This document shows, in pieces, positions 11,496 to 24,732 of a stretch of 34,668 nucleotides of DNA (positions are counted from its first letter, which is position 1; each line of letters opens with the position of its first letter). Position numbers and translations under genes: made by a program. The notes beneath the pieces were generated by a model. The model did no database searches. It saw only the letters and a program-made list of their open reading frames with translations, and was not told where the DNA came from. The stretch is taken from assembly GCA_030148045.1 (NCBI GenBank), contig JASBUE010000169.1:1-34668 (forward strand). Direction: 5' to 3'. The stretch comes from Candidatus Tenderia sp. GTDB lineage: Bacteria; Pseudomonadota; Gammaproteobacteria; Tenderiales; Tenderiaceae.

Positions 11496-14638
<3,143 letters not shown>

Positions 14639-14990
14639 TTATAGTACCGTATGGCGCCCCAGGCTTACACACCCAGTCGCCCGACTGCCCCGTGCGTGCC
14701 CATTAGGCTGATCTTATGCCACTGGAGAACCCTCATTCCCGGCGACACACGAAGATCGATTAAAGTCTCGACCACCACGGTCCTCCTCAAAAAAGCCCCA
14801 TCCTTACCCCTGAATTTACCGTTTTAGTCGCCGCCTTGCGTCGTGAAAAACCTCTTCCGGAATTCATTGCCACAGCAACCGGCCGTGAACTTCGAACACA
14901 CGGCATTTTCTAAAGTATTTGTCTCTCAAGTCCCGGCGAGCAAGCGCTATGCCCGGGCATCTTGTCACCACTGATAAGGACGCCTTCACT

Positions 14991-15488
14991 ATGAACAACC
15001 CCACCAATTCAACACTTGCCCACAGCGAGTTTCCCATTAAACACAACGACCTGCTGCTCAATTACTTACACTGGACAATCCGGGCCGCCACAAAATTTCT
15101 CGCCATCCTGATGACACTGGTTATTCTCTGGGGGGTCTTCGACGTCATCTACATCGTCTATTCCCAGCTGGCGCACCCGCCCTATTTCCAGATCCGCGAT
15201 ATCATGACCACGTTTGGCGCCTTTCTGGCCGTACTGATCGCCTATGAGATATTCACCAACATCACCCTCTATATCAGGACCGACGTATTTCCCGTCCAAC
15301 TGGTGGTCGCGACGGCGCTCATGGCAGTGGCAAGAAAAGTGATCGCCCTGGACCTGGAAAAGCTAGAACCGCTTTATCTGCTGGGACTCGGTGCAATCGT
15401 CATGTCACTGGGAATCAGCTATTGGCTGATCGTACGGAGCGAAGGAGCGCTCACATCCAAAAATTCAAGACTGGAACACTCCGCCTGA
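14991..15488 (+). CDS. phosphate-starvation-inducible PsiE-family membrane protein
   Basis: Four predicted TM helices. The segment FLAVLIAYEIFTNITLYIRTDVFPVQLVVATALMAVARKVIALD matches the conserved PsiE core (..E......Y.......v......iA..Rk.i.ld). The ATG at 14991 has AAGGA upstream; the track start at 14919 is less likely. Confidence 0.7.
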   Translation: MNNPTNSTLAHSEFPIKHNDLLLNYLHWTIRAATKFLAILMTLVILWGVFDVIYIVYSQLAHPPYFQIRDIMTTFGAFLAVLIAYEIFTNITLYIRTDVFPVQLVVATALMAVARKVIALDLEKLEPLYLLGLGAIVMSLGISYWLIVRSEGALTSKNSRLEHSA

Positions 15489-15575
15489 CACCGCCTCTGC
15501 CTCATGATCGGGCTTGCACTTTTTTGCGCCAAGACCAACACTATCGGAGTAGGAACCATAAAGGAAGGATGCGTC

Positions 15576-16097
15576 ATGAGCGAAGAAAGCCGGCATAACG
15601 AAAATCAGGTTCATGCCTATAACCAGATGATGCGCCGGGTCAAAGAGACCCTGGGCAAGGCGGAAAAGGCCGCCGAACCACGCCTGCGCCAAGCCATCGA
15701 GGCGGCCGAGGAAAAGGCCGTGGAGCTGGGCGAGCTGAGCCGCGAAGAAGCGGTGCAGATCGGCGACTACCTGCGCCGCGACCTGCAGGACGCCGGCGAA
15801 TACCTGGCCGGCGACGAGGCCCAGGAACTGAAGGACTGGCTGCGCATCGATCTCAACCTGATCGAAAACCAGCTCTTCGACATGTTTCTGAGTGTGGCGG
15901 ACCAGGCCAAGCTGGACATGCTCGAATTCCAGGAACAGCTGGCCGAGGCCACCGAATACCGCACCGGCGAGATCACCGGCCCAGGCCTGTTGGCCTGCAT
16001 GGATTGCGGCGAGGAACTACACTTTCACGAGACCGGCCACATTCCACCCTGCCCCAAGTGCCGCGGCACCTATTTCATCCGTCCCTCGGAGGCCTAA
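15576..16097 (+). CDS. DUF1451-type zinc-ribbon-containing protein
   Basis: Acidic coiled-coil N-terminal part (ELGELSREEAVQIGDYLRRDLQDAGEYL...DWLRIDLNLIE) with a C-terminal CxxC...CxxC ribbon (CMDCGEELHFHETGHIPPCPKCRGTYF). The ATG at 15576 is preceded by AAGGAAGGA. Confidence 0.65.
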   Translation: MSEESRHNENQVHAYNQMMRRVKETLGKAEKAAEPRLRQAIEAAEEKAVELGELSREEAVQIGDYLRRDLQDAGEYLAGDEAQELKDWLRIDLNLIENQLFDMFLSVADQAKLDMLEFQEQLAEATEYRTGEITGPGLLACMDCGEELHFHETGHIPPCPKCRGTYFIRPSEA

Positions 16098-16104
16098 GCC
16101 GGGC

Positions 16105-16617
16105 ATGAAGACCCTGCTGCTGTTTCGCCACGCCAAGTCCGACTGGGCCAATGACTTGCCGGACTTTGATCGCCCGCTCAATGCGCGCGGGCAAAAGGCC
16201 GCCGAACGCATGGGGCGATGGATGAAACAGGCCCATATTCAGCCGGAATGGATTGTCAGCTCCCCGGCCCGGCGGGCGCTGGAAACGGTGCAGGGCCTGC
16301 GCCAGCATCTGGACATCCCCGATACCCTGGTCCATTTCGATGAGCGGCTGTACCTGGCCGACGTCGCCGCCCTGCTGGAGGTGGCCGCACGTTGTCCGCA
16401 GGACATGGACGACATCATGCTGATGGGGCACAACCCGGGCATGGATGAGCTGCTCACCTTTCTGTGCGGCCCCAACCTGCCGCGCTCGAAAAAGGGCAAG
16501 CTGATGGCCACCGCCACCCTGGCCCAGGTCAGCCTGCCGGACGACTGGCAACAGCTGACCGCCGAGTGCGGCAAGCTGCAGCAAATCATTCGCCCCGGCG
16601 AGATCGATTTGCGCTAG
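16105..16617 (+). CDS. SixA-like histidine phosphatase family protein
   Basis: MKTLLLFRHAKSDW (RHA catalytic motif), DRPLNARGQ and MLMGHNPGM. It starts 8 nt after the DUF1451 stop; the longer track ORF (15892) is an out-of-frame overlap with the previous gene. Confidence 0.8.
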   Translation: MKTLLLFRHAKSDWANDLPDFDRPLNARGQKAAERMGRWMKQAHIQPEWIVSSPARRALETVQGLRQHLDIPDTLVHFDERLYLADVAALLEVAARCPQDMDDIMLMGHNPGMDELLTFLCGPNLPRSKKGKLMATATLAQVSLPDDWQQLTAECGKLQQIIRPGEIDLR

Positions 16618-16619
16618 CG

Positions 16620-16647
16620 ATTGTCATAATTGTCATAATTTTCATGC
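16620..16647 (+). promoter_or_regulatory. tandem TGTCATAAT repeats (Pho-box-like) upstream of the CHAD-parA-ppx unit
   Basis: aTTGTCATAATTGTCATAATTTTCATgc: two abutting perfect 9-mers (16622-16630, 16631-16639) plus a degenerate third copy, about 12 nt upstream of a TAGACT -10 candidate (16658-16663). Confidence 0.35.
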
Positions 16648-16698
16648 GCTCCGCCTGCTAGACTGCAGTTTTGCAGCAACGCCAGGAGCACAGCACAC

Positions 16699-18234
16699 AT
16701 GCCCTCTTACGGTTATGTCATCCATCCGAAGAGCGGAACCTCAGCGCTGCTCAGCCAGCTTGGCCAAACCCTCGACCTGAGCAAGGAACCACAACAGCGC
16801 TTCAGACGCGACTATCTGGACAGCTTCGACTGGCGCCTGCTCAAGCAGGGCTACTGCCTGCAGGCCGCGCATCACGAGGACGCCGTGCTGCTGCAACTGG
16901 TGCACCTGCGTGATTTGGAACTGGTCACCCAGCTGCACAGCGCCAAGCCGCCCCGCTTTGTCGATGCGCTGGAACCCTCCCGGCTGGCAACGCTGCTCAG
17001 GCCCATGCTCGCTATGCGCGCCCTGCTGCCGCAAATCAGCACCACGGTGACACAACAATGTCTGCACCGGCTCAATGCCCAGGACAAAATCACCGCCACG
17101 CTCTGCGTGGAACGGATCAAACCGCATACTGATCGGCGAGCGCTGAAGCTGTTGCTTCATAACGTCGTCAAAGGTTATGAGGCGGACAACAAACGCGTCA
17201 GCAAGTATCTGCAGGGCGAGCCCTCACTGGAAGCGACACGGCACAGCACTCTGCAGTTGCTGCTCAGCCGCCTGGATATGGACACAAGCTACAACAGCAA
17301 GGCGAATCTCAGGCTCGACGGCGCGGCACGCAGCGACGCGCAGATCAAACGCTTGCTGGCCTTTTTCCTGGAGGTGATGCGACGCAACGAAGACGGTATT
17401 ATCAAGGACATCGACAGCGAATTTTTGCACGACTACCGCATCGCGATCCGGCGCAGCCGCACCCTGCTGGGACAGGTGCCGGGGATCATGCCGCAGCGGA
17501 CCGTGGAGCGCGCCAGGGCCCAACTGTCCAGGCTGGGCCGTATCACCACCCCGTTGCGTGACCTGGATGTAATGCTGCTCAATTTCGATGATTATCGTGA
17601 ATTGCTGCCCGGCACCCTTCAGGCCGATCTCGATCCGGCCCTGACCTTCATACGGGAACAGCGTCAAGGCGCCTATCAAAACCTGCGTCGTCAGTTAGGT
17701 TCAAAAAGCCACGCCCGGTTCCACCGGCGCTGGCGCGATTTTTTGGGCAGCCCGGTGCCGGCCAATACACGGCTGGCCAACGCCAAGCGGCCGCTGCAAC
17801 AGGTGGCCAACCAACGCATTTGGAAAAGCTACAAAAAAGTGCTGAAACAAGGCGGGGCGATCACGGATGCATCGCCGCCGGAGGATCTGCATACCCTGCG
17901 CAAGAGCTGCAAAAAACTGCGTTATCTCATGGAATTTTTTCGCACGCTCTATGCCAGAAAGAAACTCAAGCAGCTCATCGCCATCCTCAAGCGCCTACAG
18001 GACAATCTGGGGGAGTATCAAGACATCCACGTGCATATCGATTTCTTCGCCCACCTACGCCGGGACATGCAGGACCAGGGGCGCCTGCCCGAGGCCACCG
18101 CCGTCGCCCTGGACAAGGTCATCGCCGGCCTCAACATACAACAGCGGACTCAACGCCAGGGGTTTCACCAGCGCTTTGACGAATTCAGCCGCGCCGCCAA
18201 CCGAAAAAGTTTCAAAGCGCTGTTCAAACCATGA
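16699..18234 (+). CDS. CHAD domain-containing protein with CYTH-like N-terminal region
   Basis: The C-terminal half has CHAD signatures FLHDYRIAIRRSRTLLGQ, LHTLRKSCKKLRYLMEFF and LQDNLGEYQDIHV. AGGAG lies 10 nt upstream of the ATG. Confidence 0.85.
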   Translation: MPSYGYVIHPKSGTSALLSQLGQTLDLSKEPQQRFRRDYLDSFDWRLLKQGYCLQAAHHEDAVLLQLVHLRDLELVTQLHSAKPPRFVDALEPSRLATLLRPMLAMRALLPQISTTVTQQCLHRLNAQDKITATLCVERIKPHTDRRALKLLLHNVVKGYEADNKRVSKYLQGEPSLEATRHSTLQLLLSRLDMDTSYNSKANLRLDGAARSDAQIKRLLAFFLEVMRRNEDGIIKDIDSEFLHDYRIAIRRSRTLLGQVPGIMPQRTVERARAQLSRLGRITTPLRDLDVMLLNFDDYRELLPGTLQADLDPALTFIREQRQGAYQNLRRQLGSKSHARFHRRWRDFLGSPVPANTRLANAKRPLQQVANQRIWKSYKKVLKQGGAITDASPPEDLHTLRKSCKKLRYLMEFFRTLYARKKLKQLIAILKRLQDNLGEYQDIHVHIDFFAHLRRDMQDQGRLPEATAVALDKVIAGLNIQQRTQRQGFHQRFDEFSRAANRKSFKALFKP

Positions 18235-18971
18235 AGACCGTCGCCCTCTATAACATCAAGGGCGGCGTGGGCAAGACCGCCAGCGCCGTCAACCTGGCCT
18301 ACCTCAGCGCCCACAGCGGCTACCGCACCCTGTTGTGGGACATGGACCCGCAGGCGGCGGCCAGTTTTTATTTCCGCATCAAGGCCAAGATCAAGGGCGG
18401 CGCGGGCCGTTTGGTCAAGCCCAAGGGCGACCTTGAGGACCATATCAAGGGCACCGACTACGCCCTGCTCGACCTGCTGCCGGCGGACTTCTCCAGCCGC
18501 AACCTGGACCTGCTACTGGAACAGCGCAAACAACCGACCCGGCGCATCGCCAAACTGCTGCAGCCCTTGAGCGACGACTACGATTTGGTGTTCATCGACT
18601 GCGCCCCGAGCATTTCTCTGGTGTCGGAAAATATTTTTCACGCCGCCGACGTGCTGCTGATTCCCACCATTCCCACCACCCTGTCGCTGCGCACGCTGAA
18701 ACAGATCTATGATCACTTCCGCGCTGAAGACCTGCCCACGGACCGCCTGCACCCCTTTTTCTCCATGGTCGACGTGCGGCGCCAGATGCATCGCCTGATC
18801 ATGGAACAGCCACCGGAGAAACTGGCCCTGTTCCTGAAGGCGCCCATCCCCTACATCAGCGAGATCGAACGCATGGGCATGGAGCGCAAACCGGCCTGCA
18901 TCGCGCCGGCCAGCCGTGCCGCCCAGGCCTATAACGCATTGTGGCGGGAGCTTGGCCGAATTGTGTTTTAG
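18231..18971 (+). CDS. orphan ParA/MinD-family P-loop ATPase
   Basis: Deviant Walker A with signature lysine (YNIKGGVGKTASAVNLA), Walker A' LLWDMDPQ and Walker B LVFIDCAPS. 246 aa with no N-terminal HTH extension. The ATG overlaps the CHAD TGA (ATGA at 18231-18234). Confidence 0.85.
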   Translation: MKTVALYNIKGGVGKTASAVNLAYLSAHSGYRTLLWDMDPQAAASFYFRIKAKIKGGAGRLVKPKGDLEDHIKGTDYALLDLLPADFSSRNLDLLLEQRKQPTRRIAKLLQPLSDDYDLVFIDCAPSISLVSENIFHAADVLLIPTIPTTLSLRTLKQIYDHFRAEDLPTDRLHPFFSMVDVRRQMHRLIMEQPPEKLALFLKAPIPYISEIERMGMERKPACIAPASRAAQAYNALWRELGRIVF

Positions 18972-19051
18972 CCGGCGCCGGCCTTGTTTACCTGAAGTCA
19001 AAAAAGTCGGTACACTGCGATCAATGTAATCACAGCGACGCAAGGCCTATC

Positions 19052-20572
19052 GTGCCCAGATCAAGACCGACTCCCGAGACCGCCGCCGCCATCGACCTAG
19101 GCTCCAATAGTTTTCACATGATCGTGGCGCGCATCCAGGACGGCCAGGTGGCGGTGATTGACCGCATCCGCGATGCCATCCGCCTGGCCGGCGGCATCGA
19201 TGCAGACAACAACATCGACGAAGCGACCCAGGAGCAAGCCCTGGAATGCCTGCGCCGCTTCGGCCAACGCCTGGCCGACTTTCCGCCGGGCAGCGTGCGC
19301 GCCGTGGGCACCAACACCCTGCGCAACGCCAATAATTCCTACAGCTTCCTGGCGCGGGCGGAAGAGGCCCTGGGTCATCCCATCGACATCATCTCGGGTG
19401 TGGAAGAGGCGCGCATGATCTATCGCGGTGTCGCCCACAGTCTGGCGGTCACCGATCAGCGCCGCCTGGTGATGGATATCGGCGGCGGCAGTACCGAACT
19501 CATCATCGGCGACGATACCGGCCCGGTGTACATGGAAAGCATGGAGATGGGCTGCGTCACCACCACGCGCAACTTTTTTCCCGACGGCGGCATCACCCCC
19601 AAGCGTATCGAAAAGGCGCGCATCTTCGCCCTGACCGAACTGGAACCGCATGTCAGCGGTTTTCTGAAAGTGGGTTGGGACCAGGCCATCGGTGCCTCGG
19701 GGACCATCCGCTCGGTGAACAGAGTACTCAGCGCCGCGGGCTGGAGCGGCGACACTATCACGCTGGACGGCCTGAAAAAACTGATCGAGAAACTGGGGAC
19801 ATTCGACAGCATCGACAAGATCAAACTGGACGGCCTGACCGATGAGCGCGTGCCCGTGTTTATCGGCGGCGCCATTGTCCTGCTGGCCACCTTCGAGGCC
19901 TTGGGCATCAAAGAGATGGAGGTCTCTGACCGCGCCCTGCGCGAAGGATTGCTGCATGATCTGATCGGCCGCTTGCAGGACCAGGACGTGCGCGACTCCA
20001 GCATCATCCATCTGGCGCAGCGCTACCATGCCGACCCCGGCCAGGCGCAGCGGGTAAAACAAACCGCCCTCGATGCCTTAAACCAGGTTGCCGCCGACTG
20101 GGCGCTGGAGGACGGAGATGCCGCACACTGGCTCGGCTGGGCCGCCGAATTGCACGAGATCGGCCTGGACATCGCCCACAACCGCCATCACCATCATGCC
20201 GCCTATATTATCGAACATTCGGACCTGGCCGGTTTTTCGCAGCAGGAGCAACGCTTCCTCGCCGCCATTGTGCGCAGTCACCGCCGCAAGCTGCCGCTTA
20301 AACTCTATAAGGAACTGCCCAAACGCATCAGCAAGCCGGTCAAACGGCTGTCGGTACTCTTGCGCCTGGCGGTGATTCTGCATCGTGGCCGCAGCGACAT
20401 TGAATTACCGCCATTCACGCTGAACGTCAGCAATAAAACCAGAATCGAACTGTGTCTCGACACCACATGGCTGCAGCAACACCCGCTCACCCAGGCGGAC
20501 CTGGAGCAGGAAAAGGTCTATCTGGCCAATGCGGGATTTGAACTGAGCCTGTACCAAGAAGAACCCAGCTAA
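19052..20572 (+). CDS. ppx: exopolyphosphatase (Ppx/GppA family)
   Basis: AAIDLGSNSFHMIVARI, DIGGGSTELI and a C-terminal HD-like region HHHHAAYII. The GTG at 19052 gives an N-terminus of E. coli-like length and avoids overlap with parA; the alternative GTG at 18941 overlaps parA by 31 nt. Confidence 0.88.
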   Translation: MPRSRPTPETAAAIDLGSNSFHMIVARIQDGQVAVIDRIRDAIRLAGGIDADNNIDEATQEQALECLRRFGQRLADFPPGSVRAVGTNTLRNANNSYSFLARAEEALGHPIDIISGVEEARMIYRGVAHSLAVTDQRRLVMDIGGGSTELIIGDDTGPVYMESMEMGCVTTTRNFFPDGGITPKRIEKARIFALTELEPHVSGFLKVGWDQAIGASGTIRSVNRVLSAAGWSGDTITLDGLKKLIEKLGTFDSIDKIKLDGLTDERVPVFIGGAIVLLATFEALGIKEMEVSDRALREGLLHDLIGRLQDQDVRDSSIIHLAQRYHADPGQAQRVKQTALDALNQVAADWALEDGDAAHWLGWAAELHEIGLDIAHNRHHHHAAYIIEHSDLAGFSQQEQRFLAAIVRSHRRKLPLKLYKELPKRISKPVKRLSVLLRLAVILHRGRSDIELPPFTLNVSNKTRIELCLDTTWLQQHPLTQADLEQEKVYLANAGFELSLYQEEPS

Positions 20573-20592
20573 CTACTTAGGGCCTGTTAACC

Positions 20593-22665
20593 CTAACTTT
20601 CCGATAGCTCATTGAGCAAGGCCTGTTGGGCGGAGAAGGGTTCCTCCCCTTCCGCCATTTGCGGCAGGGCGTAACTGCCGTCGGCGCTGAGAATCCAGGC
20701 CTGGGTATTATCTTTTAGATACCAGGCCAGATCTTGCTTGACCCGTTCGCGCAGCGTCTTGTTCTCAATGGGAAAACAGATCTCGACACGGCGGAACATG
20801 TTGCGCTCCATCCAGTCTGCGCTAGAGGCGTACACCTCTTCCCCACCGCCGTTGGCGAAATAGAATACCCGGGTGTGTTCCAGAAAACGACCGATGACCG
20901 AGCGCACCCGGATGTTTTCCGAAACACCGGGCATGCCGGGGCGCAGACGGCACATGCCGCGCACGATCAGGTCGATCTCCACACCCGCCTGCGAGGCGCG
21001 GTAAAGGGCCTGGATCAACTGGGGGTCGATCAGGGCATTGACCTTGACGATAACACGCCCTCCCCGCCCTTCTCGGACATGGACAATCTCGCGCTCGATC
21101 TTATCCAGCATGGCCTGGTGCAGCGTAAAAGGGGAATGCAGCAGGCGGTTCATCTTGGCCACCTTACCCAGGCTGGTGAGCTGGTTGAAGACCTTGTGCA
21201 CGTCCTGGCCGATGGCCTTGTTGCAGCTCATCAGCCCATAGTCGGTATAGATACGCGCCGTGCGCGGATGGTAATTGCCCGTCCCCAGGTGCACATAATG
21301 GCGCAGCCGCTTGCCCTCGCGGCGCACCACCAGGATCATCTTGGCGTGGGTCTTGTAACCCACCACCCCGTAGACCACGTGGGCGCCGGCACGCTGCAGG
21401 CGCGTCGCCAGGGCTACGTTGGCCTCCTCGTCGAAACGCGCCATCAATTCGATGACCACCGTCACCTCCTTGCCGGCATGGGCCGCCGCCACCAGGGCAT
21501 CGACGACCGCCGACTGCGGCCCGGTACGGTAGAGTGTCTGCTTGATCGCCAGCACGTGCGGATCCTCCGCCGCCTGCCTCAGGAAATCGACCACCGGCAG
21601 AAAGGATTCAAACGGCAGATGCAGCAACACGTCACGCTTGGCGATGGCCTTGAAGATATCCTTGCCGGCCAGCTGCTGGGGCAGGCGCGGCGTAAAGGAG
21701 GGATACTTGAGGTCGGGACGGTCCACCAGTTCGCAGACCTCGGCCAGCCGGTTGAGATTGACCGGGCCATTGACCTGATAGACATCCACATCCGCCAGCA
21801 CGAACTGGTCCTGCAGGAACTTGACCTGTTCCTGCGGGCAGTTATGGGCCACCTCCAGCCGCACCAGATCGCCGTAGTTGCGCGTCAGCAGCTCCCCCTC
21901 CACGGCACGCAGCAGATCGTCGATTTCCTCTTCGTCGACAAACAGTTCACTGTTGCGGGTGACACGGAACTGGTACAGGCCCTCGACCTTCATGCCGTGG
22001 AACAGCACGTCGGCAAAGGCGTGCATCACGGAAGAGAGAAAAACGAAATCGTACGGTCCGCTGTCGGTCTCGTCGGCCGGCAACTGGATCACCCGCGGCA
22101 GCGAGCGCGGCGCCGAGATCACCGCCAGGCCGCTGTTGCGGCCGAAAGCGTCCTTGCCCGTCAGTGCGACGATAAAGTTGAGGCTCTTGTTGAGGATGCG
22201 CGGAAAGGGATGGGCCGGGTCCAGCCCCATGGGACTCAGTACCGGCTGCAGGGATTCGTTGAAGTATCTGCGCAGCCAGCGCCGCTGCGATGCATTCCAG
22301 TCGTCGCGGCGAATGAAGCGGATACCCTGCGCTTCGAGAAGAGGAAACATGATGTCGTTGAGGACGCGGTATTGTTCATCCACCAGGTCGTGTGCTCGCA
22401 GACTGATCTCCTTGAGCACTTCCTGCGCCGTCATGTTATCCGGCCCGCTCTCCATGGCGCCAAGACCGGCCTTCTGTTTCAGGCCGGCGACGCGGACTTC
22501 GAAGAACTCATCCAGGTTGGTACTGGAAATACAGAGGAAACGGATCCGCTCGAGCAGCGGTACACGTTCATCCTTGGCCTGCTCCAGGACGCGGCGGTTG
22601 AATTCGAGCAGACTCAGCTCGCGGTTGACATACAGCTCGGGTTGCTTGAGATCGATTTCGTCCAT
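20593..22665 (-). CDS. ppk: polyphosphate kinase 1
   Basis: 690 aa; YVNRELSLLEFNRRVLEQA, FLCISSTNLDEFFEVRV, KTHAKMILVVRRE and LGTGNYH motifs. Confidence 0.95.
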   Translation of the reverse strand: MDEIDLKQPELYVNRELSLLEFNRRVLEQAKDERVPLLERIRFLCISSTNLDEFFEVRVAGLKQKAGLGAMESGPDNMTAQEVLKEISLRAHDLVDEQYRVLNDIMFPLLEAQGIRFIRRDDWNASQRRWLRRYFNESLQPVLSPMGLDPAHPFPRILNKSLNFIVALTGKDAFGRNSGLAVISAPRSLPRVIQLPADETDSGPYDFVFLSSVMHAFADVLFHGMKVEGLYQFRVTRNSELFVDEEEIDDLLRAVEGELLTRNYGDLVRLEVAHNCPQEQVKFLQDQFVLADVDVYQVNGPVNLNRLAEVCELVDRPDLKYPSFTPRLPQQLAGKDIFKAIAKRDVLLHLPFESFLPVVDFLRQAAEDPHVLAIKQTLYRTGPQSAVVDALVAAAHAGKEVTVVIELMARFDEEANVALATRLQRAGAHVVYGVVGYKTHAKMILVVRREGKRLRHYVHLGTGNYHPRTARIYTDYGLMSCNKAIGQDVHKVFNQLTSLGKVAKMNRLLHSPFTLHQAMLDKIEREIVHVREGRGGRVIVKVNALIDPQLIQALYRASQAGVEIDLIVRGMCRLRPGMPGVSENIRVRSVIGRFLEHTRVFYFANGGGEEVYASSADWMERNMFRRVEICFPIENKTLRERVKQDLAWYLKDNTQAWILSADGSYALPQMAEGEEPFSAQQALLNELSES

Positions 22666-22751
22666 AACGGGGAGTTTGTCTTGTTATGAATCGATCTTAG
22701 CACACGCAGGGCGCAAGAATTATGACAGTTGTCAAGGCGAGCGCTGGCCGC

Positions 22752-23156
22752 CTAATAGCCCCACTTCTTGAAACGCTTGTCCCATTTTTTAAAGCGTTTA
22801 CGACAATATTTATCCAGCGCCGCGTCATCCTCGAAGAACAGCTCAAACCCCTCCTGGGCCGGTACGTCGAATTCGCAAAAATCGTTGTCGTATTCGCGGC
22901 AGATGCGCGGGCGCCGCTCGTAGATGGCGCAGCCGCCGCCCGGCAACAGGTGGCGGCAGGGTTGATTGAACAGCAGGAACCAGCCGTCTTCGTCCTTGTA
23001 GGCCTGCACCTCGCGATGCGAGAGCTGCCAGAGGATGAAATCGAAGTCCTTCATGGAGCGTGGCGTGTCGATCTGCTGCGTGACATAGGTACAGCAGATG
23101 GAGCCCTTGCAGAAACTGCATTTGTTTTCCGGGGTGATTTTAATCTTTTCGGCCAT
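22752..23156 (-). CDS. YkgJ-family cysteine-cluster (UPF0153) protein
   Basis: CSFCKGSICC (CxxCxxxCC) plus a C..LLPGGGCAIYERRP..CREY motif. The likely start is the ATG at 23156 (MAEKIKI). Confidence 0.75.
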   Translation of the reverse strand: MAEKIKITPENKCSFCKGSICCTYVTQQIDTPRSMKDFDFILWQLSHREVQAYKDEDGWFLLFNQPCRHLLPGGGCAIYERRPRICREYDNDFCEFDVPAQEGFELFFEDDAALDKYCRKRFKKWDKRFKKWGY

Positions 23157-23175
23157 ACCTTTACCCAATCATGCT

Positions 23176-24732
23176 TCAGCGCGCGACGTCTGCATTCAGG
23201 CTGCGCGCCGCTCTCAAGCGCCAAAATGATACACCGACCAGGACCAGCGCCACTACAACCACCAGCCAGTTGCCGGTTAAGGCATACAGCGTCATTCCTG
23301 TACGGGGCTGAATGGTGGCGCTGATGCCGGCCACCTCGAACTGCGGCGCCTTTTTAATAATCCTGCCCTTTTCGTCGACGACGGCGCTGATACCGGTGTT
23401 GGTGGCGCGCAGCATGGGACGCCCCGTCTCCAAGGCCCGCATGCGCGCCATCTGCAAATGCTGCGGCGGCGCCCATGAATCATCGAACCAGGCATCATTG
23501 CTGACATTCACCAGCAGGGTGGCCTCGGGCAAGGCGTTGATGATCTCCTCGCCAAAGGCATCTTCGAAACAGATGGAGATACCGGCATATTGACCGGCGA
23601 CCTTGAGCGGCGCCTGACCGGCGCCGCCTTTGCTGAAATCGGACATGGGCACCTGCATGAAGGAAACCAGCCCGCCGAGGATGGATTTCAGCGGCAGATA
23701 TTCGGTAAAGGGCACTAGATGATTCTTGTGATAGCGCCCCCGCTCTGCCCCGATGCTCATCATGGTGTTGTAATAACGGCGCCTGTCCTTGTCGAAGCTC
23801 AGCATGCCGATCAGCATGTCGGTGTCATGCGCCTGCGCCTCGGTTTCCAGATCACGCAGAAAGATCTCGGTTTCATAGTAAAAAGCAGGCAGCGCCGTCT
23901 CCGGCCAGACGATCAGATCGGCACCCCAGTGCTGGCGCGTCAATTCAGTGTAGAGCTCGATGGTCGGGCGGCGGACATCCGGATGCCATTTCAGGTCCTG
24001 GGGAATATTGCCCTGCAGCAGGACGACATCGAGCGGCGCACCGCTGGGGCGGGTCCAATCGGCGGTGTCGGCCACGCCGGCCAGCAGCCAAAGCGACACC
24101 AGCATGGCGAGATAAAAGATCCGCCCCGCCTTGTCGAACAGCAGCCCCACCAGCAGCGCGGCGCTGAACACGACCGCCCAGGAAATCCCGTAGACCCCAA
24201 GCAAGGGCGCCAATCCCGCCAGCGGCGAATCGGTCTGGCTGTAGCCCAGGCTGAGCCAGGGGAAACCGGTCATGAACCAGCCACGCGTCCACTCCATCAA
24301 CAACCAGGCCGCCGGAAACACCAGCAGCAGTTTATAGCGCGTGGCGCGGCTCTCGAAGCCCTGGGGAAAGAAGCGCCCTAGCAGCCAACCCAGCAACGTG
24401 GGAAACAACGCCATCACCAGGATCAGCAGTAGGGTCAGAAGCAGCGACAGGACCAGCCCCACATAACCGTGATAGTGAATACTGACAAAGACCCAGCTGA
24501 TACCGACACTGAACAGGCCGAGGCCGTAAAGGAACCCACGACAGGCGGCGCGGCGCGGCGCGGAAAACAGCCACACAGCCAGCAACAGCGCGGTGGTCAA
24601 CAGCGCCAGCGGCCACCAGCCGAGCGGTGCAAAGGCCAGCGGCGTGGCCGCGCCGGCCGCCAGCGCAAGCATGTCGCCGTGCCAGGCCTGGGTCAATCGC
24701 ACAAAACGCACCGCAAACTGGTTCACAGGCAC
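23176..24732 (-). CDS. lnt: apolipoprotein N-acyltransferase
   Basis: Multi-TM N-terminal part (TPLAFAPLGWWPLALL), then a CN-hydrolase domain (VVLLQGNIPQDLKW, LIVWPETA, ISICFEDAF). GTG start at 24732, with an alternative ATG at 24672. corC-lnt synteny. Confidence 0.9.
   Translation of the reverse strand: MPVNQFAVRFVRLTQAWHGDMLALAAGAATPLAFAPLGWWPLALLTTALLLAVWLFSAPRRAACRGFLYGLGLFSVGISWVFVSIHYHGYVGLVLSLLLTLLLILVMALFPTLLGWLLGRFFPQGFESRATRYKLLLVFPAAWLLMEWTRGWFMTGFPWLSLGYSQTDSPLAGLAPLLGVYGISWAVVFSAALLVGLLFDKAGRIFYLAMLVSLWLLAGVADTADWTRPSGAPLDVVLLQGNIPQDLKWHPDVRRPTIELYTELTRQHWGADLIVWPETALPAFYYETEIFLRDLETEAQAHDTDMLIGMLSFDKDRRRYYNTMMSIGAERGRYHKNHLVPFTEYLPLKSILGGLVSFMQVPMSDFSKGGAGQAPLKVAGQYAGISICFEDAFGEEIINALPEATLLVNVSNDAWFDDSWAPPQHLQMARMRALETGRPMLRATNTGISAVVDEKGRIIKKAPQFEVAGISATIQPRTGMTLYALTGNWLVVVVALVLVGVSFWRLRAARSLNADVAR

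Follow-up and report, generated by a model that had tools for sequence, protein, structure and literature searches.

Polyphosphate (polyP) granules are known to be nucleoid-associated and regularly spaced, and how they are spaced and inherited is an acknowledged open problem. According to reviews of 2025–2026, no ATP-driven system for positioning polyP granules is known, and those of 2025 name a single known positioning factor for these granules, AlgP of Pseudomonas aeruginosa; AlgP, PhaM, PhaF and PhaH tether polyP or polyhydroxybutyrate granules to the nucleoid and control granule number and spacing. In Synechococcus elongatus, the spacing of polyP granules is independent of the carboxysome positioning system McdAB and was ascribed to a 'yet-to-be-discovered' mechanism (2026 mBio paper of a ParA-focused laboratory). 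Energy spending on polyP granule localisation 'remains to be seen', in the words of a 2025 review. Here we describe a gene pair in a stretch of 34,668 nucleotides from Candidatus Tenderia sp. (GenBank assembly GCA_030148045.1, contig JASBUE010000169.1), which is referred to as the window. A 511-aa protein with a CHAD domain and a domain of the triphosphate tunnel metalloenzyme (TTM) fold is encoded directly ahead of a 246-aa ATPase of the ParA/MinD family. A functional coupling of both proteins in polyP-granule biology is very probable; it is well supported because the translationally coupled pairing is conserved, the binding of polyP by CHAD domains is grounded by experiment and no other conserved partner was found. 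By analogy, the pair may constitute a dedicated two-component system for the ParA-type spatial organisation of polyP granules, to which we assign a probability of roughly 0.55, and as a candidate for an ATP-driven organiser of these granules it is then the first concrete one. An earlier sequence-only reading of the locus had proposed this role, with the CHAD protein as adaptor of the ATPase; it is partly supported here, since its computationally testable parts pass.

The stop codon of the CHAD gene lies inside the ATGA that starts the ParA gene, as the sequence-only reading had observed. A Shine-Dalgarno sequence (AGGAG) is present about 9 nt 5' of the CHAD start codon and none precedes the ParA ATG, thus termination-reinitiation fits as the mode of ParA translation, and the overlap fits a translational coupling of ParA to the CHAD gene ahead of it. 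The distribution of the pair was studied with two independent seeds. An alignment of 35 ParA homologues (alignment A1) was used for a scan of one genome per GTDB species. Relatives are encoded in at least 576 stretches, of which the best 80 loci were taken on, and 77 of these were informative after the removal of three cut by contig ends. A CHAD gene is located directly upstream on the same strand in 65 of these 77 loci, with a 4-nt overlap in 44 loci and a 1-nt overlap in 6 more. Seeded on the CHAD protein, the best 80 matches on JGI metagenome contigs yielded 73 informative loci, 56 with the ParA gene directly downstream and 34 with the 4-nt overlap. Linked pairs occur in Gamma-, Beta- (Nitrotoga) and Alphaproteobacteria (Thalassobaculum, Rhodospirillales) among the Pseudomonadota, and furthermore in Desulfobacterota, Acidobacteriota, many Actinomycetota and one metagenome-assembled genome (MAG) of the Planctomycetota. 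Conservation of the CHAD-ParA pair extends to at least five bacterial phyla. At this depth, linked ParAs are 53–62 % and linked CHAD proteins about 35–40 % identical to the proteins of the window, and six junction sequences, aligned from Actinomycetota to the window, all have the ATGA unchanged. The recurrence of the same overlap across phyla argues for a pairing beyond chance. The pair is also annotated in RefSeq for the cultured Paracoccus aestuarii DSM 19484, where the gene of a 'CHAD domain-containing protein' overlaps in the same manner with that of the 'AAA family ATPase' behind it.

A third component 3' of the ParA gene is not conserved, the largest cluster of downstream genes comprising 8 of 124 loci; the conserved unit is strictly two genes, CHAD followed by ParA. 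ParAs without an adjacent CHAD gene belong mainly to one Methylococcales subclade of nine loci, which a neighbour-joining tree places within the linked sequences. Its members have unrelated neighbours (a major facilitator superfamily transporter, Dtd, MgtE, glycogen phosphorylase), and four sister Methylococcaceae loci retain the pair. Because the unlinked Methylococcales nest among linked relatives and share no replacement neighbour, the linkage looks ancestral and secondarily lost. One apparent natural fusion of both genes, an open reading frame (ORF) of 775 aa in a MAG of the Actinomycetes (locus L063, 6444–8771), was rejected as artefact: a single-base insertion about 15 nt ahead of the ATGA distinguishes it from its nearest relative L069, and in locus L062 (6425–8004) of the same MAG series the CHAD gene is broken by frameshifts, probably long-read indel errors. 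A concatenated CHAD-ParA query returned CHAD matches only and no fusion, but it also missed the ParA of the window itself, which scores 547 bits as a single query; multi-domain queries can thus lose the matches to one half, and this negative carries no information.

The polyP-binding part of the partner protein is its C-terminal domain. Pfam CHAD (PF05235) covers residues 220–450 with an E-value of 3e-56 (191 bits, gathering threshold 25.6). An AlphaFold2 model calculated from 45 homologues has a mean predicted local distance difference test (pLDDT) score of 95 and a predicted template modelling (TM) score of 0.91. In Foldseek searches, the C-terminal 300 residues of this model have the CHAD fold of two four-helix bundles, with TM scores of 0.92–0.96 to the Chlorobium tepidum CHAD structures 6QV7, 6QVA and 3E0S; the sequence matches 3E0S and 6QV7 with an E-value of 9e-52. 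The C. tepidum domain (CtCHAD) has been crystallised with a polyP 9-mer, and its polyP binding was reduced or lost upon mutation of H253, R256, R260 and R296. The corresponding residues H244, R247, R251 and R287 of the window protein are invariant in the 45-sequence alignment. Other CHAD proteins localise to polyP granules in vivo. CtCHAD comprises residues 208–522 of a 522-aa protein (Q8KE09), thus its parent has the same two-domain layout, and it forms dimers and tetramers in solution.

The sequence-only reading had described the N-terminal domain as non-catalytic, and it is indeed a probably non-hydrolysing, degenerate TTM domain as judged by its motifs. The full-length model matches Escherichia coli YgiF (5A60), and the domain itself matches thiamine triphosphatase, class IV adenylyl cyclases and SaTTM in Foldseek (E-values of 1e-5 to 1e-3, TM scores of 0.5–0.65). 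A Pfam CYTH match was not obtained. Beta-strand 1 reads x-Y-x-I-P in the family (SYGYVIHP in the window) versus MAQEIELKF in YgiF, and motif inspection of the family's domain found neither the ExExK metal and substrate motif nor the basic RxR pair present in YgiF as LRIR. These three absences make triphosphatase activity unlikely. Still conserved are D41, D44, W45, R46, R107, K130 and E138. A profile alignment of the domain to YgiF with hhalign was not usable, so that the assignment derives from fold search and motif inspection. In P. aestuarii, the TTM-like domain matches the family profile only from position 67, and 3' of the pair on plasmid p296221 (locus L166, 3484–6651), in the same orientation, are an annotated CYTH-domain gene standing alone and a NUDIX gene; the separate, possibly active CYTH protein may complement the degenerate domain there.

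The second gene codes for an ATPase with the deviant Walker A motif KGGVGKT including the signature lysine, the Walker B motif FIDCAPS and no helix-turn-helix (HTH) extension, all reported before and confirmed here, the last because beta-strand 1 begins at residue 2. Pfam places it in AAA_31 (E-value 2e-33) and CbiA (4e-13), so that the domain assignments of both genes hold. The residues K10–T16 (within NIKGGVGKT at 8–16), the Walker A' motif W36-D37-x-D39-P-Q41 and the Walker B D123 are invariant in A1; in 133 clade members, conservation of K10–T16 is at least 98 %, and the residues of Walker A, A' and B were classed as invariant. The short and variable C-termini of these proteins argue against a MinD-like membrane helix; the median net charge of the clade is +6. 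Among the candidates scored, 7993 proteins belong to the family with E-values below 1e-10. Across phyla its members are 48–62 % identical, versus 27–30 % to Soj/ParA, and the window ParA scores under every NCBIfam equivalog cut-off (ParA_partition 76.8 versus 180, RepA 69.8 versus 348, SopA 44.9 versus 725, PrgP 50.8 versus 400, MinD 36 versus 213). On these sequence criteria the ATPase is a separate family set apart from Soj/ParA, in agreement with the expectation that it would not group with characterised chromosomal, plasmid or cargo-specific ParAs. The AlphaFold2 model (pLDDT 83) has TM scores of 0.82–0.88 to Bacillus subtilis Soj, Myxococcus xanthus ParA and Thermus thermophilus Soj at 27–30 % identity, and of 0.76–0.84 to McdA and MinD at about 20 % identity. 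Its best relatives in the PDB are M. xanthus ParA 8RAY (profile E-value 2e-33) and Soj.

The comparison with 8RAY, in which the residue number is the chain index plus 19 since the crystallised D60A is chain position 41, located the differences at the surfaces used for partners and matrix. Tyr81 of M. xanthus ParA docks an arginine of ParB. It aligns to G59 within a basic, glycine-rich loop that replaces the Tyr81/acidic docking site at helix H4. R49, K51, K55, G56 and G57 of this loop, which is aligned to chain positions 50–64, are invariant or nearly so, and the loop is predicted with a pLDDT below 50 despite its conservation. K55-G56-G57 is kept across the clade and absent from Soj and M. 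xanthus ParA; the loop might be a second phosphate-binding loop. An echo of the P-loop was observed at the DNA and protein level between NIKGGVGKT (18254–18283, residues 8–17) and KIKGGAGRL (18389–18418, residues 53–62). The ParB-pocket loop L150-G-L152 next to Walker B of M. xanthus ParA corresponds to I128-S-L130. In the clade motif at residues 206–216, S210, E213, M215 and G216 are invariant in A1. As read from the alignments, the ATPase engine is intact, but the partner site and part of the matrix-binding site are re-modelled; a different, dedicated partner would explain the change at the ParB-docking sites.

The proposed spatial organisation of granules is based on the analogy to Soj, ParA and McdA, together with the known behaviour of the granules. 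The CHAD domain, by its close homology to a polyP-binding protein, would hold the 511-aa protein on the granule surface, and the TTM-fold domain, having lost its catalytic motif, would be free to act as protein-interaction module. The ATPase is predicted to form ATP-sandwich dimers, which would bind a polyanionic matrix, most likely the nucleoid, where polyP granules sit. Granules would clear ParA locally and travel up ParA gradients as do plasmids and carboxysomes, and the expected outcome would be a regular spacing, no fusion of granules and an equal inheritance at division. The ATGA coupling would secure the co-production of ATPase and adaptor.

Several observations weigh against this positioning model. 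Many polyP-forming bacteria, E. coli, P. aeruginosa and S. elongatus among them, position their granules without the module, and the loss of CHAD proteins in Ralstonia, or of ygiF, had no apparent phenotype. Unlinked were 12 of the 77 ParAs, in one case (L027) with the CHAD gene 4 kb off, past ppk1 and ppx, and 17 of the 73 CHAD genes of the family. Both locus sets are best-80 matches and phylogenetically clustered, so that the counts are not independent events. A disordered basic tail of the ParB, McdB or ParG type is absent from the CHAD protein, which is folded from residue 3 to 509 with pLDDT values above 90, and a C-terminal N-x3-F-[KR]-x-L-F motif was rejected as ParA-activating peptide, being equally present in family CHAD proteins without adjacent ParA. 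The binding to the nucleoid is uncertain. Two arginines are conserved in DNA-binding ParA-like ATPases, R195 and R224 of Caulobacter crescentus ParA. By alignment the first corresponds to the invariant R183, and the second, equivalent to M. xanthus R238, to the glutamate E211, with R214 three residues further on; the alignment has no gaps here and is anchored at P207 and at K220-P221. The M. xanthus R238E variant is the 'ParA*' used in the biolayer interferometry assays of the M. xanthus study. The equivalent of C. crescentus R221, whose counterpart in the Helicobacter pylori ParA (HpParA) crystal structure touches DNA, is Y208. Of the nucleoid-bound ParA assumed in the sequence-only reading, one arginine has thus been found in place and the other replaced by glutamate.

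The ATPase may instead regulate the biogenesis or the metabolism of granules and move nothing, acting as an ATP-dependent dimerisation switch over nucleation, size, coat or the access of PPX and PPK1, as do relatives of the BcsQ/MipZ type. The gene pairing fits this equally well, the canonical DNA-binding site is half conserved, and the non-positioning BcsQ is present among the fold matches of the ATPase. The TTM fold is related to short-chain polyphosphatases, and the charged residues D41, D44, R46, R107, K130 and E138 are kept in a domain that has, on the other side, lost ExExK. Genes of polyP metabolism recur beside the pair: ppk1 occurs in the flanks of 6 of the 80 genome and 17 of the 80 metagenome loci, ppx near 4 and 5, and a gene for a SixA-like phosphatase near 8 and 24, and to these the CYTH and NUDIX genes of Paracoccus may be added. 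The rates are far over the chance expectation of about 0.4 % for a single-copy gene within a few kb; ppx, ppk1 and the SixA-like gene are enriched but facultative neighbours. Here the sequence-only reading has to be narrowed, which had put ParA next to both CHAD and ppx/ppk1; the first adjacency held in both surveys, the second is facultative. Possibly the SixA-like gene belongs to the polyP neighbourhood as a facultative third member; in Sulfolobales, SixA is likewise shown beside CHAD and PPX in a 2024 paper. The linkage to metabolic enzymes is variable and that to a polyP-binding protein constant, and in sequence and structure the ATPase comes closest to Soj and ParA, both segregation ATPases, and after these to McdA. 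We regard a purely regulatory role as somewhat unlikely.

PolyP and not DNA may be the polyanion to which the ATPase binds. Dimers would then coat or bridge granules via the basic loop and be released by the TTM-CHAD protein, which would result in surface remodelling, fission or the prevention of coalescence without a contribution of the nucleoid. The positive charge of the clade (median +6) is consistent with this, as is the glutamate in place of one of the two DNA-binding arginines. The strictly conserved R49-I-K-x-K-I-K55-G-G resembles a second P-loop, stands at the former acidic/Tyr81 site and is conserved yet predicted to be flexible. The proposal is purely inferential, however; the other DNA-binding arginine, R183, is invariant, and R214 may offset E211 by a charge swap. 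DNA-binding determinants are in any case poorly conserved even among those ParA-like ATPases that bind DNA. We know of no member of the ParA family with polyP as matrix. Taken together, polyP as sole matrix appears improbable. A broader proposition, that the family represents a widespread uncharacterised class of ParA with an inorganic polymer granule as cargo, a folded adaptor of dead TTM domain and CHAD clamp, the KIKGG loop as substitute for the ParB-docking and DNA surface, and polyP as matrix or co-activator replacing DNA or alongside it, is rather doubtful as a whole.

A coupling to the chromosome cycle was considered as well, in which the ATPase would tie the polyP or phosphate status, sensed via the TTM-CHAD protein, to replication, segregation or division, similar to Soj acting on DnaA, and granules would not be moved. 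Soj and chromosomal ParA are the nearest relatives, and granule behaviour in Caulobacter is tied to chromosome replication and segregation according to a cited review. The locus is also set among housekeeping genes. The nearest named relative, Candidatus Tenderia electrophaga, encodes a ParA with 88 % identity in an identical gene order (holA-lptE-leuS / DUF1451, SixA-like, CHAD, ParA, ppx / ppk1, lnt, corC, ybeY, phoH, miaB), and the retention of this order among housekeeping genes indicates a chromosomal locus and not a mobile element. On the other hand, a ParB domain was present neither in any scanned ORF of at least 140 aa of the whole 34.7-kb window nor within 10 kb on either side of the syntenic Ca. 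Tenderia locus, and a repeat search over 14600–23200 for parS-like sites returned chance-level imperfect matches only and no array, which bears out the earlier statement that neither is nearby. The ParB-docking site is not conserved, and it is a polyP-binding protein, not a replication or division gene, to which the ATPase is strictly coupled in translation. A chromosomal signalling role is therefore very unlikely. An ordinary orphan partition ATPase of chromosomal, plasmid-derived or other cargo, located beside CHAD by coincidence, agrees with the generic ParA/CbiA assignment by Pfam and NCBIfam and with unlinked distant homologues such as those of Bacteroidota, among them the Pontibacter plasmid copy beside a KilA-N gene, but is close to refuted by the linkage statistics, since two independent searches showed adjacency, orientation and 4-nt overlap to be kept in at least five phyla, the unlinked members nest within linked ones and plasmids and phages have hardly any member of the clade.

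In detail, a plasmid or phage origin of the ParA clade was rejected because of this near-absence: among 72,556 plasmids, about ten records contain a match at 37–50 % identity, all of them megaplasmids or chromids, and among 50,697 phages no match exceeds 33 % identity. Five plasmid records were inspected. The Paracoccus aestuarii record is the only one of these that clearly has the same system, with CHAD linkage. The ParA of Marinobacter nauticus VT8 pMAQU02 (42 % identical) is not CHAD-linked, and the same applies to that of Pontibacter sp. G13 (47 % identical), which is located at the extreme end of a 93-kb record. A Halomonas record is unannotated, with no CHAD gene at its end. In a homologue from a Chitinophagaceae member of the Bacteroidota, in the range of 47–48 % identity together with Pontibacter, CHAD linkage is likewise missing. 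As both Bacteroidota homologues seen are unlinked, the edge of the CHAD-linked family appears to lie near 50 % identity. Members at this edge may serve other cargos, perhaps plasmid partition.

The features of the locus are compiled in Table 1. The product of ppx has the Ppx-GppA domain and domain III in Pfam and exceeds the NCBIfam TIGR03706 cut-off. The arrangement with ppx downstream and ppk1 convergent was described correctly before; the distance of ppx from the ParA gene is 80 nt if ppx starts at the GTG, instead of the 81 nt then given. In this interval no terminator-like site was found. A psiE gene (phosphate-starvation-inducible E, PF06146) and a DUF1451 zinc-ribbon gene are located at 14919–15488 and 15504–16097 of the forward strand, 5' of the SixA-like gene, so that the region of 14.9–22.7 kb looks like a phosphate-related gene island among housekeeping genes. 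Further away, at 99–1809 of the forward strand, a tyrosine recombinase of the XerC/XerD type (Phage_integrase and SAM-like domain) is encoded behind a DUF484 gene; this is the usual housekeeping neighbourhood of xerC and not a mobile element.

Table 1 Features of the CHAD-ParA locus in the window
Feature	Position	Strand	Remarks
SixA-like histidine phosphatase gene	16105..16617	+	Directly upstream of the CHAD gene; His_Phos_1; under TIGR00249 cut-off
Two tandem exact copies of TGTCATAATT	16622..16640	+	Pho-box-like half-site repeat, 60–77 nt upstream of CHAD start
TTM-like and CHAD protein gene, 511 aa	16699..18234	+	ORF and Pfam; proposed granule-bound adaptor
N-terminal TTM/CYTH-fold domain, residues 1–195	16699..17283	+	Foldseek; no Pfam match; candidate ParA-contact module
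CHAD domain, residues 197–500	17287..18198	+	PolyP-binding module by homology
ATGA stop/start overlap of CHAD and ParA genes	18231..18234	+	CHAD TGA at 18232–18234
ParA/MinD-family ATPase gene, 246 aa	18231..18971	+	Small Soj-like type without HTH
Deviant Walker A KGGVGKT, residues 10–16	18258..18278	+	Signature lysine K10; invariant in A1
Basic glycine-rich loop R-I-K-A-K-I-K-G-G-A-G-R-L, residues 49–61	18375..18413	+	Clade-specific; at the M. xanthus Tyr81 helix-H4 site
Walker B region FIDCAPS, residues 121–127	18591..18611	+	Followed by I128-S-L130
R183 codon	18777..18779	+	Invariant; aligned to C. crescentus ParA R195
Clade motif I-P-Y-I-S-E-I-E-R-M-G, residues 206–216	18846..18878	+	Replaces PRNVRLSEAPS of Soj/ParA
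ppx (exopolyphosphatase)	19052..20572	+	GTG start; facultative neighbour of the pair
ppk1 (polyphosphate kinase 1)	20593..22665	-	Convergent; facultative neighbour
Third copy of TGTCATAATT	22718..22727	-	About 53 nt upstream of ppk1 start codon

Three exact copies of the 10-mer TGTCATAATT are present in the window versus 1.41 expected, a count that is not significant alone. The copies are each located about 20–25 nt ahead of a -10-like hexamer, TAGACT or TAAGAT. The 10-mer resembles a Pho-box half-site, but the tandem copies have a period of 9 bp and not 11. Both sites are kept in Ca. Tenderia (locus L161, 8392–8410 and about 14483) despite a diverged surrounding intergenic sequence. The tandem copies are a probable phosphate-responsive promoter element of the operon, which in this organism would include ppx, and the third copy suggests a shared phosphate control of the CHAD-ParA module and ppk1 in this lineage. 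With a Pho-box-like element common to the operon and ppk1, production of the machinery would coincide with that of polyP.

The gene pair has been drawn before. In Acidithiobacillus, the context folD-ppk-parA-CHAD is highly conserved within the genus (Moya-Beltran 2019; Microorganisms 2024). These papers depict the same pair beside ppk1, but label parA only as chromosome/plasmid partitioning protein, discuss the context in terms of cAMP synthesis or copper resistance, and contain neither a survey across phyla nor a hypothesis on granule positioning. A literature search on polyP, CHAD or phosin together with ParA revealed nothing beyond this synteny, although older CHAD papers might mention a ParA neighbour in passing; a characterised system of this architecture, of which the sequence-only reading had been aware of none, did not turn up in the searchable literature. 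For the problem of granule spacing and inheritance, the module offers two specific candidate proteins in several phyla, including the cultured carriers Paracoccus aestuarii DSM 19484, Sedimenticola selenatireducens, Thalassobaculum litoreum and Acidithiobacillus. If the positioning of granules by the pair is true, the cargo range of ParA/MinD ATPases grows to an inorganic polymer, and a large family annotated as 'CHAD domain-containing', whose dead TTM domain lacks an explanation so far, gains a function. The module would answer the question on energy use in granule localisation raised in the 2025 review, and would present a handle on polyP granule organisation in organisms of phosphorus removal, biomining and bioelectrochemistry.

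Each half of the module has described counterparts. E. coli YgiF, an inorganic triphosphatase, and the CtCHAD protein share the two-domain layout of TTM/CYTH fold and CHAD, and the polyP-contact residues checked in the window protein are those of CtCHAD; the TTM domain of YgiF possesses ExExK and the RxR pair, whereas that of the window lacks both, and the neighbours of ygiF in E. coli K-12 are glnE and ygiM, not a ParA gene. With ParA and Soj of the ParABS systems (M. xanthus 8RAY, B. subtilis, T. thermophilus), the window ATPase has the deviant Walker A, the A' and B motifs and the arginine aligned to C. crescentus R195 in common. It differs by the lack of ParB and parS, by the basic KIKGG loop in place of the Tyr81 site and by a glutamate in place of M. 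xanthus R238. AlgP, PhaM, PhaF and PhaH are single histone-like DNA-binding proteins with no known need for ATP, whereas the module contains an ATPase. Similar in design is McdA/McdB of S. elongatus and Halothiobacillus neapolitanus, also a small ParA-type ATPase beside a cargo-bound adaptor without ParB and parS, whose cargo is, as proposed here, a non-DNA, nucleoid-associated metabolic inclusion in need of even spacing and inheritance. The McdA structures 6NON and 6NOP match the window ParA with a TM score of about 0.8, but at an identity of only 19–20 %. McdB is small and largely disordered, in contrast to the unrelated, fully folded TTM-CHAD adaptor of 511 aa; in the pair described here the adaptor gene precedes the ATPase gene with a 4-nt overlap, and the proposed cargo is a granule of an inorganic polymer.

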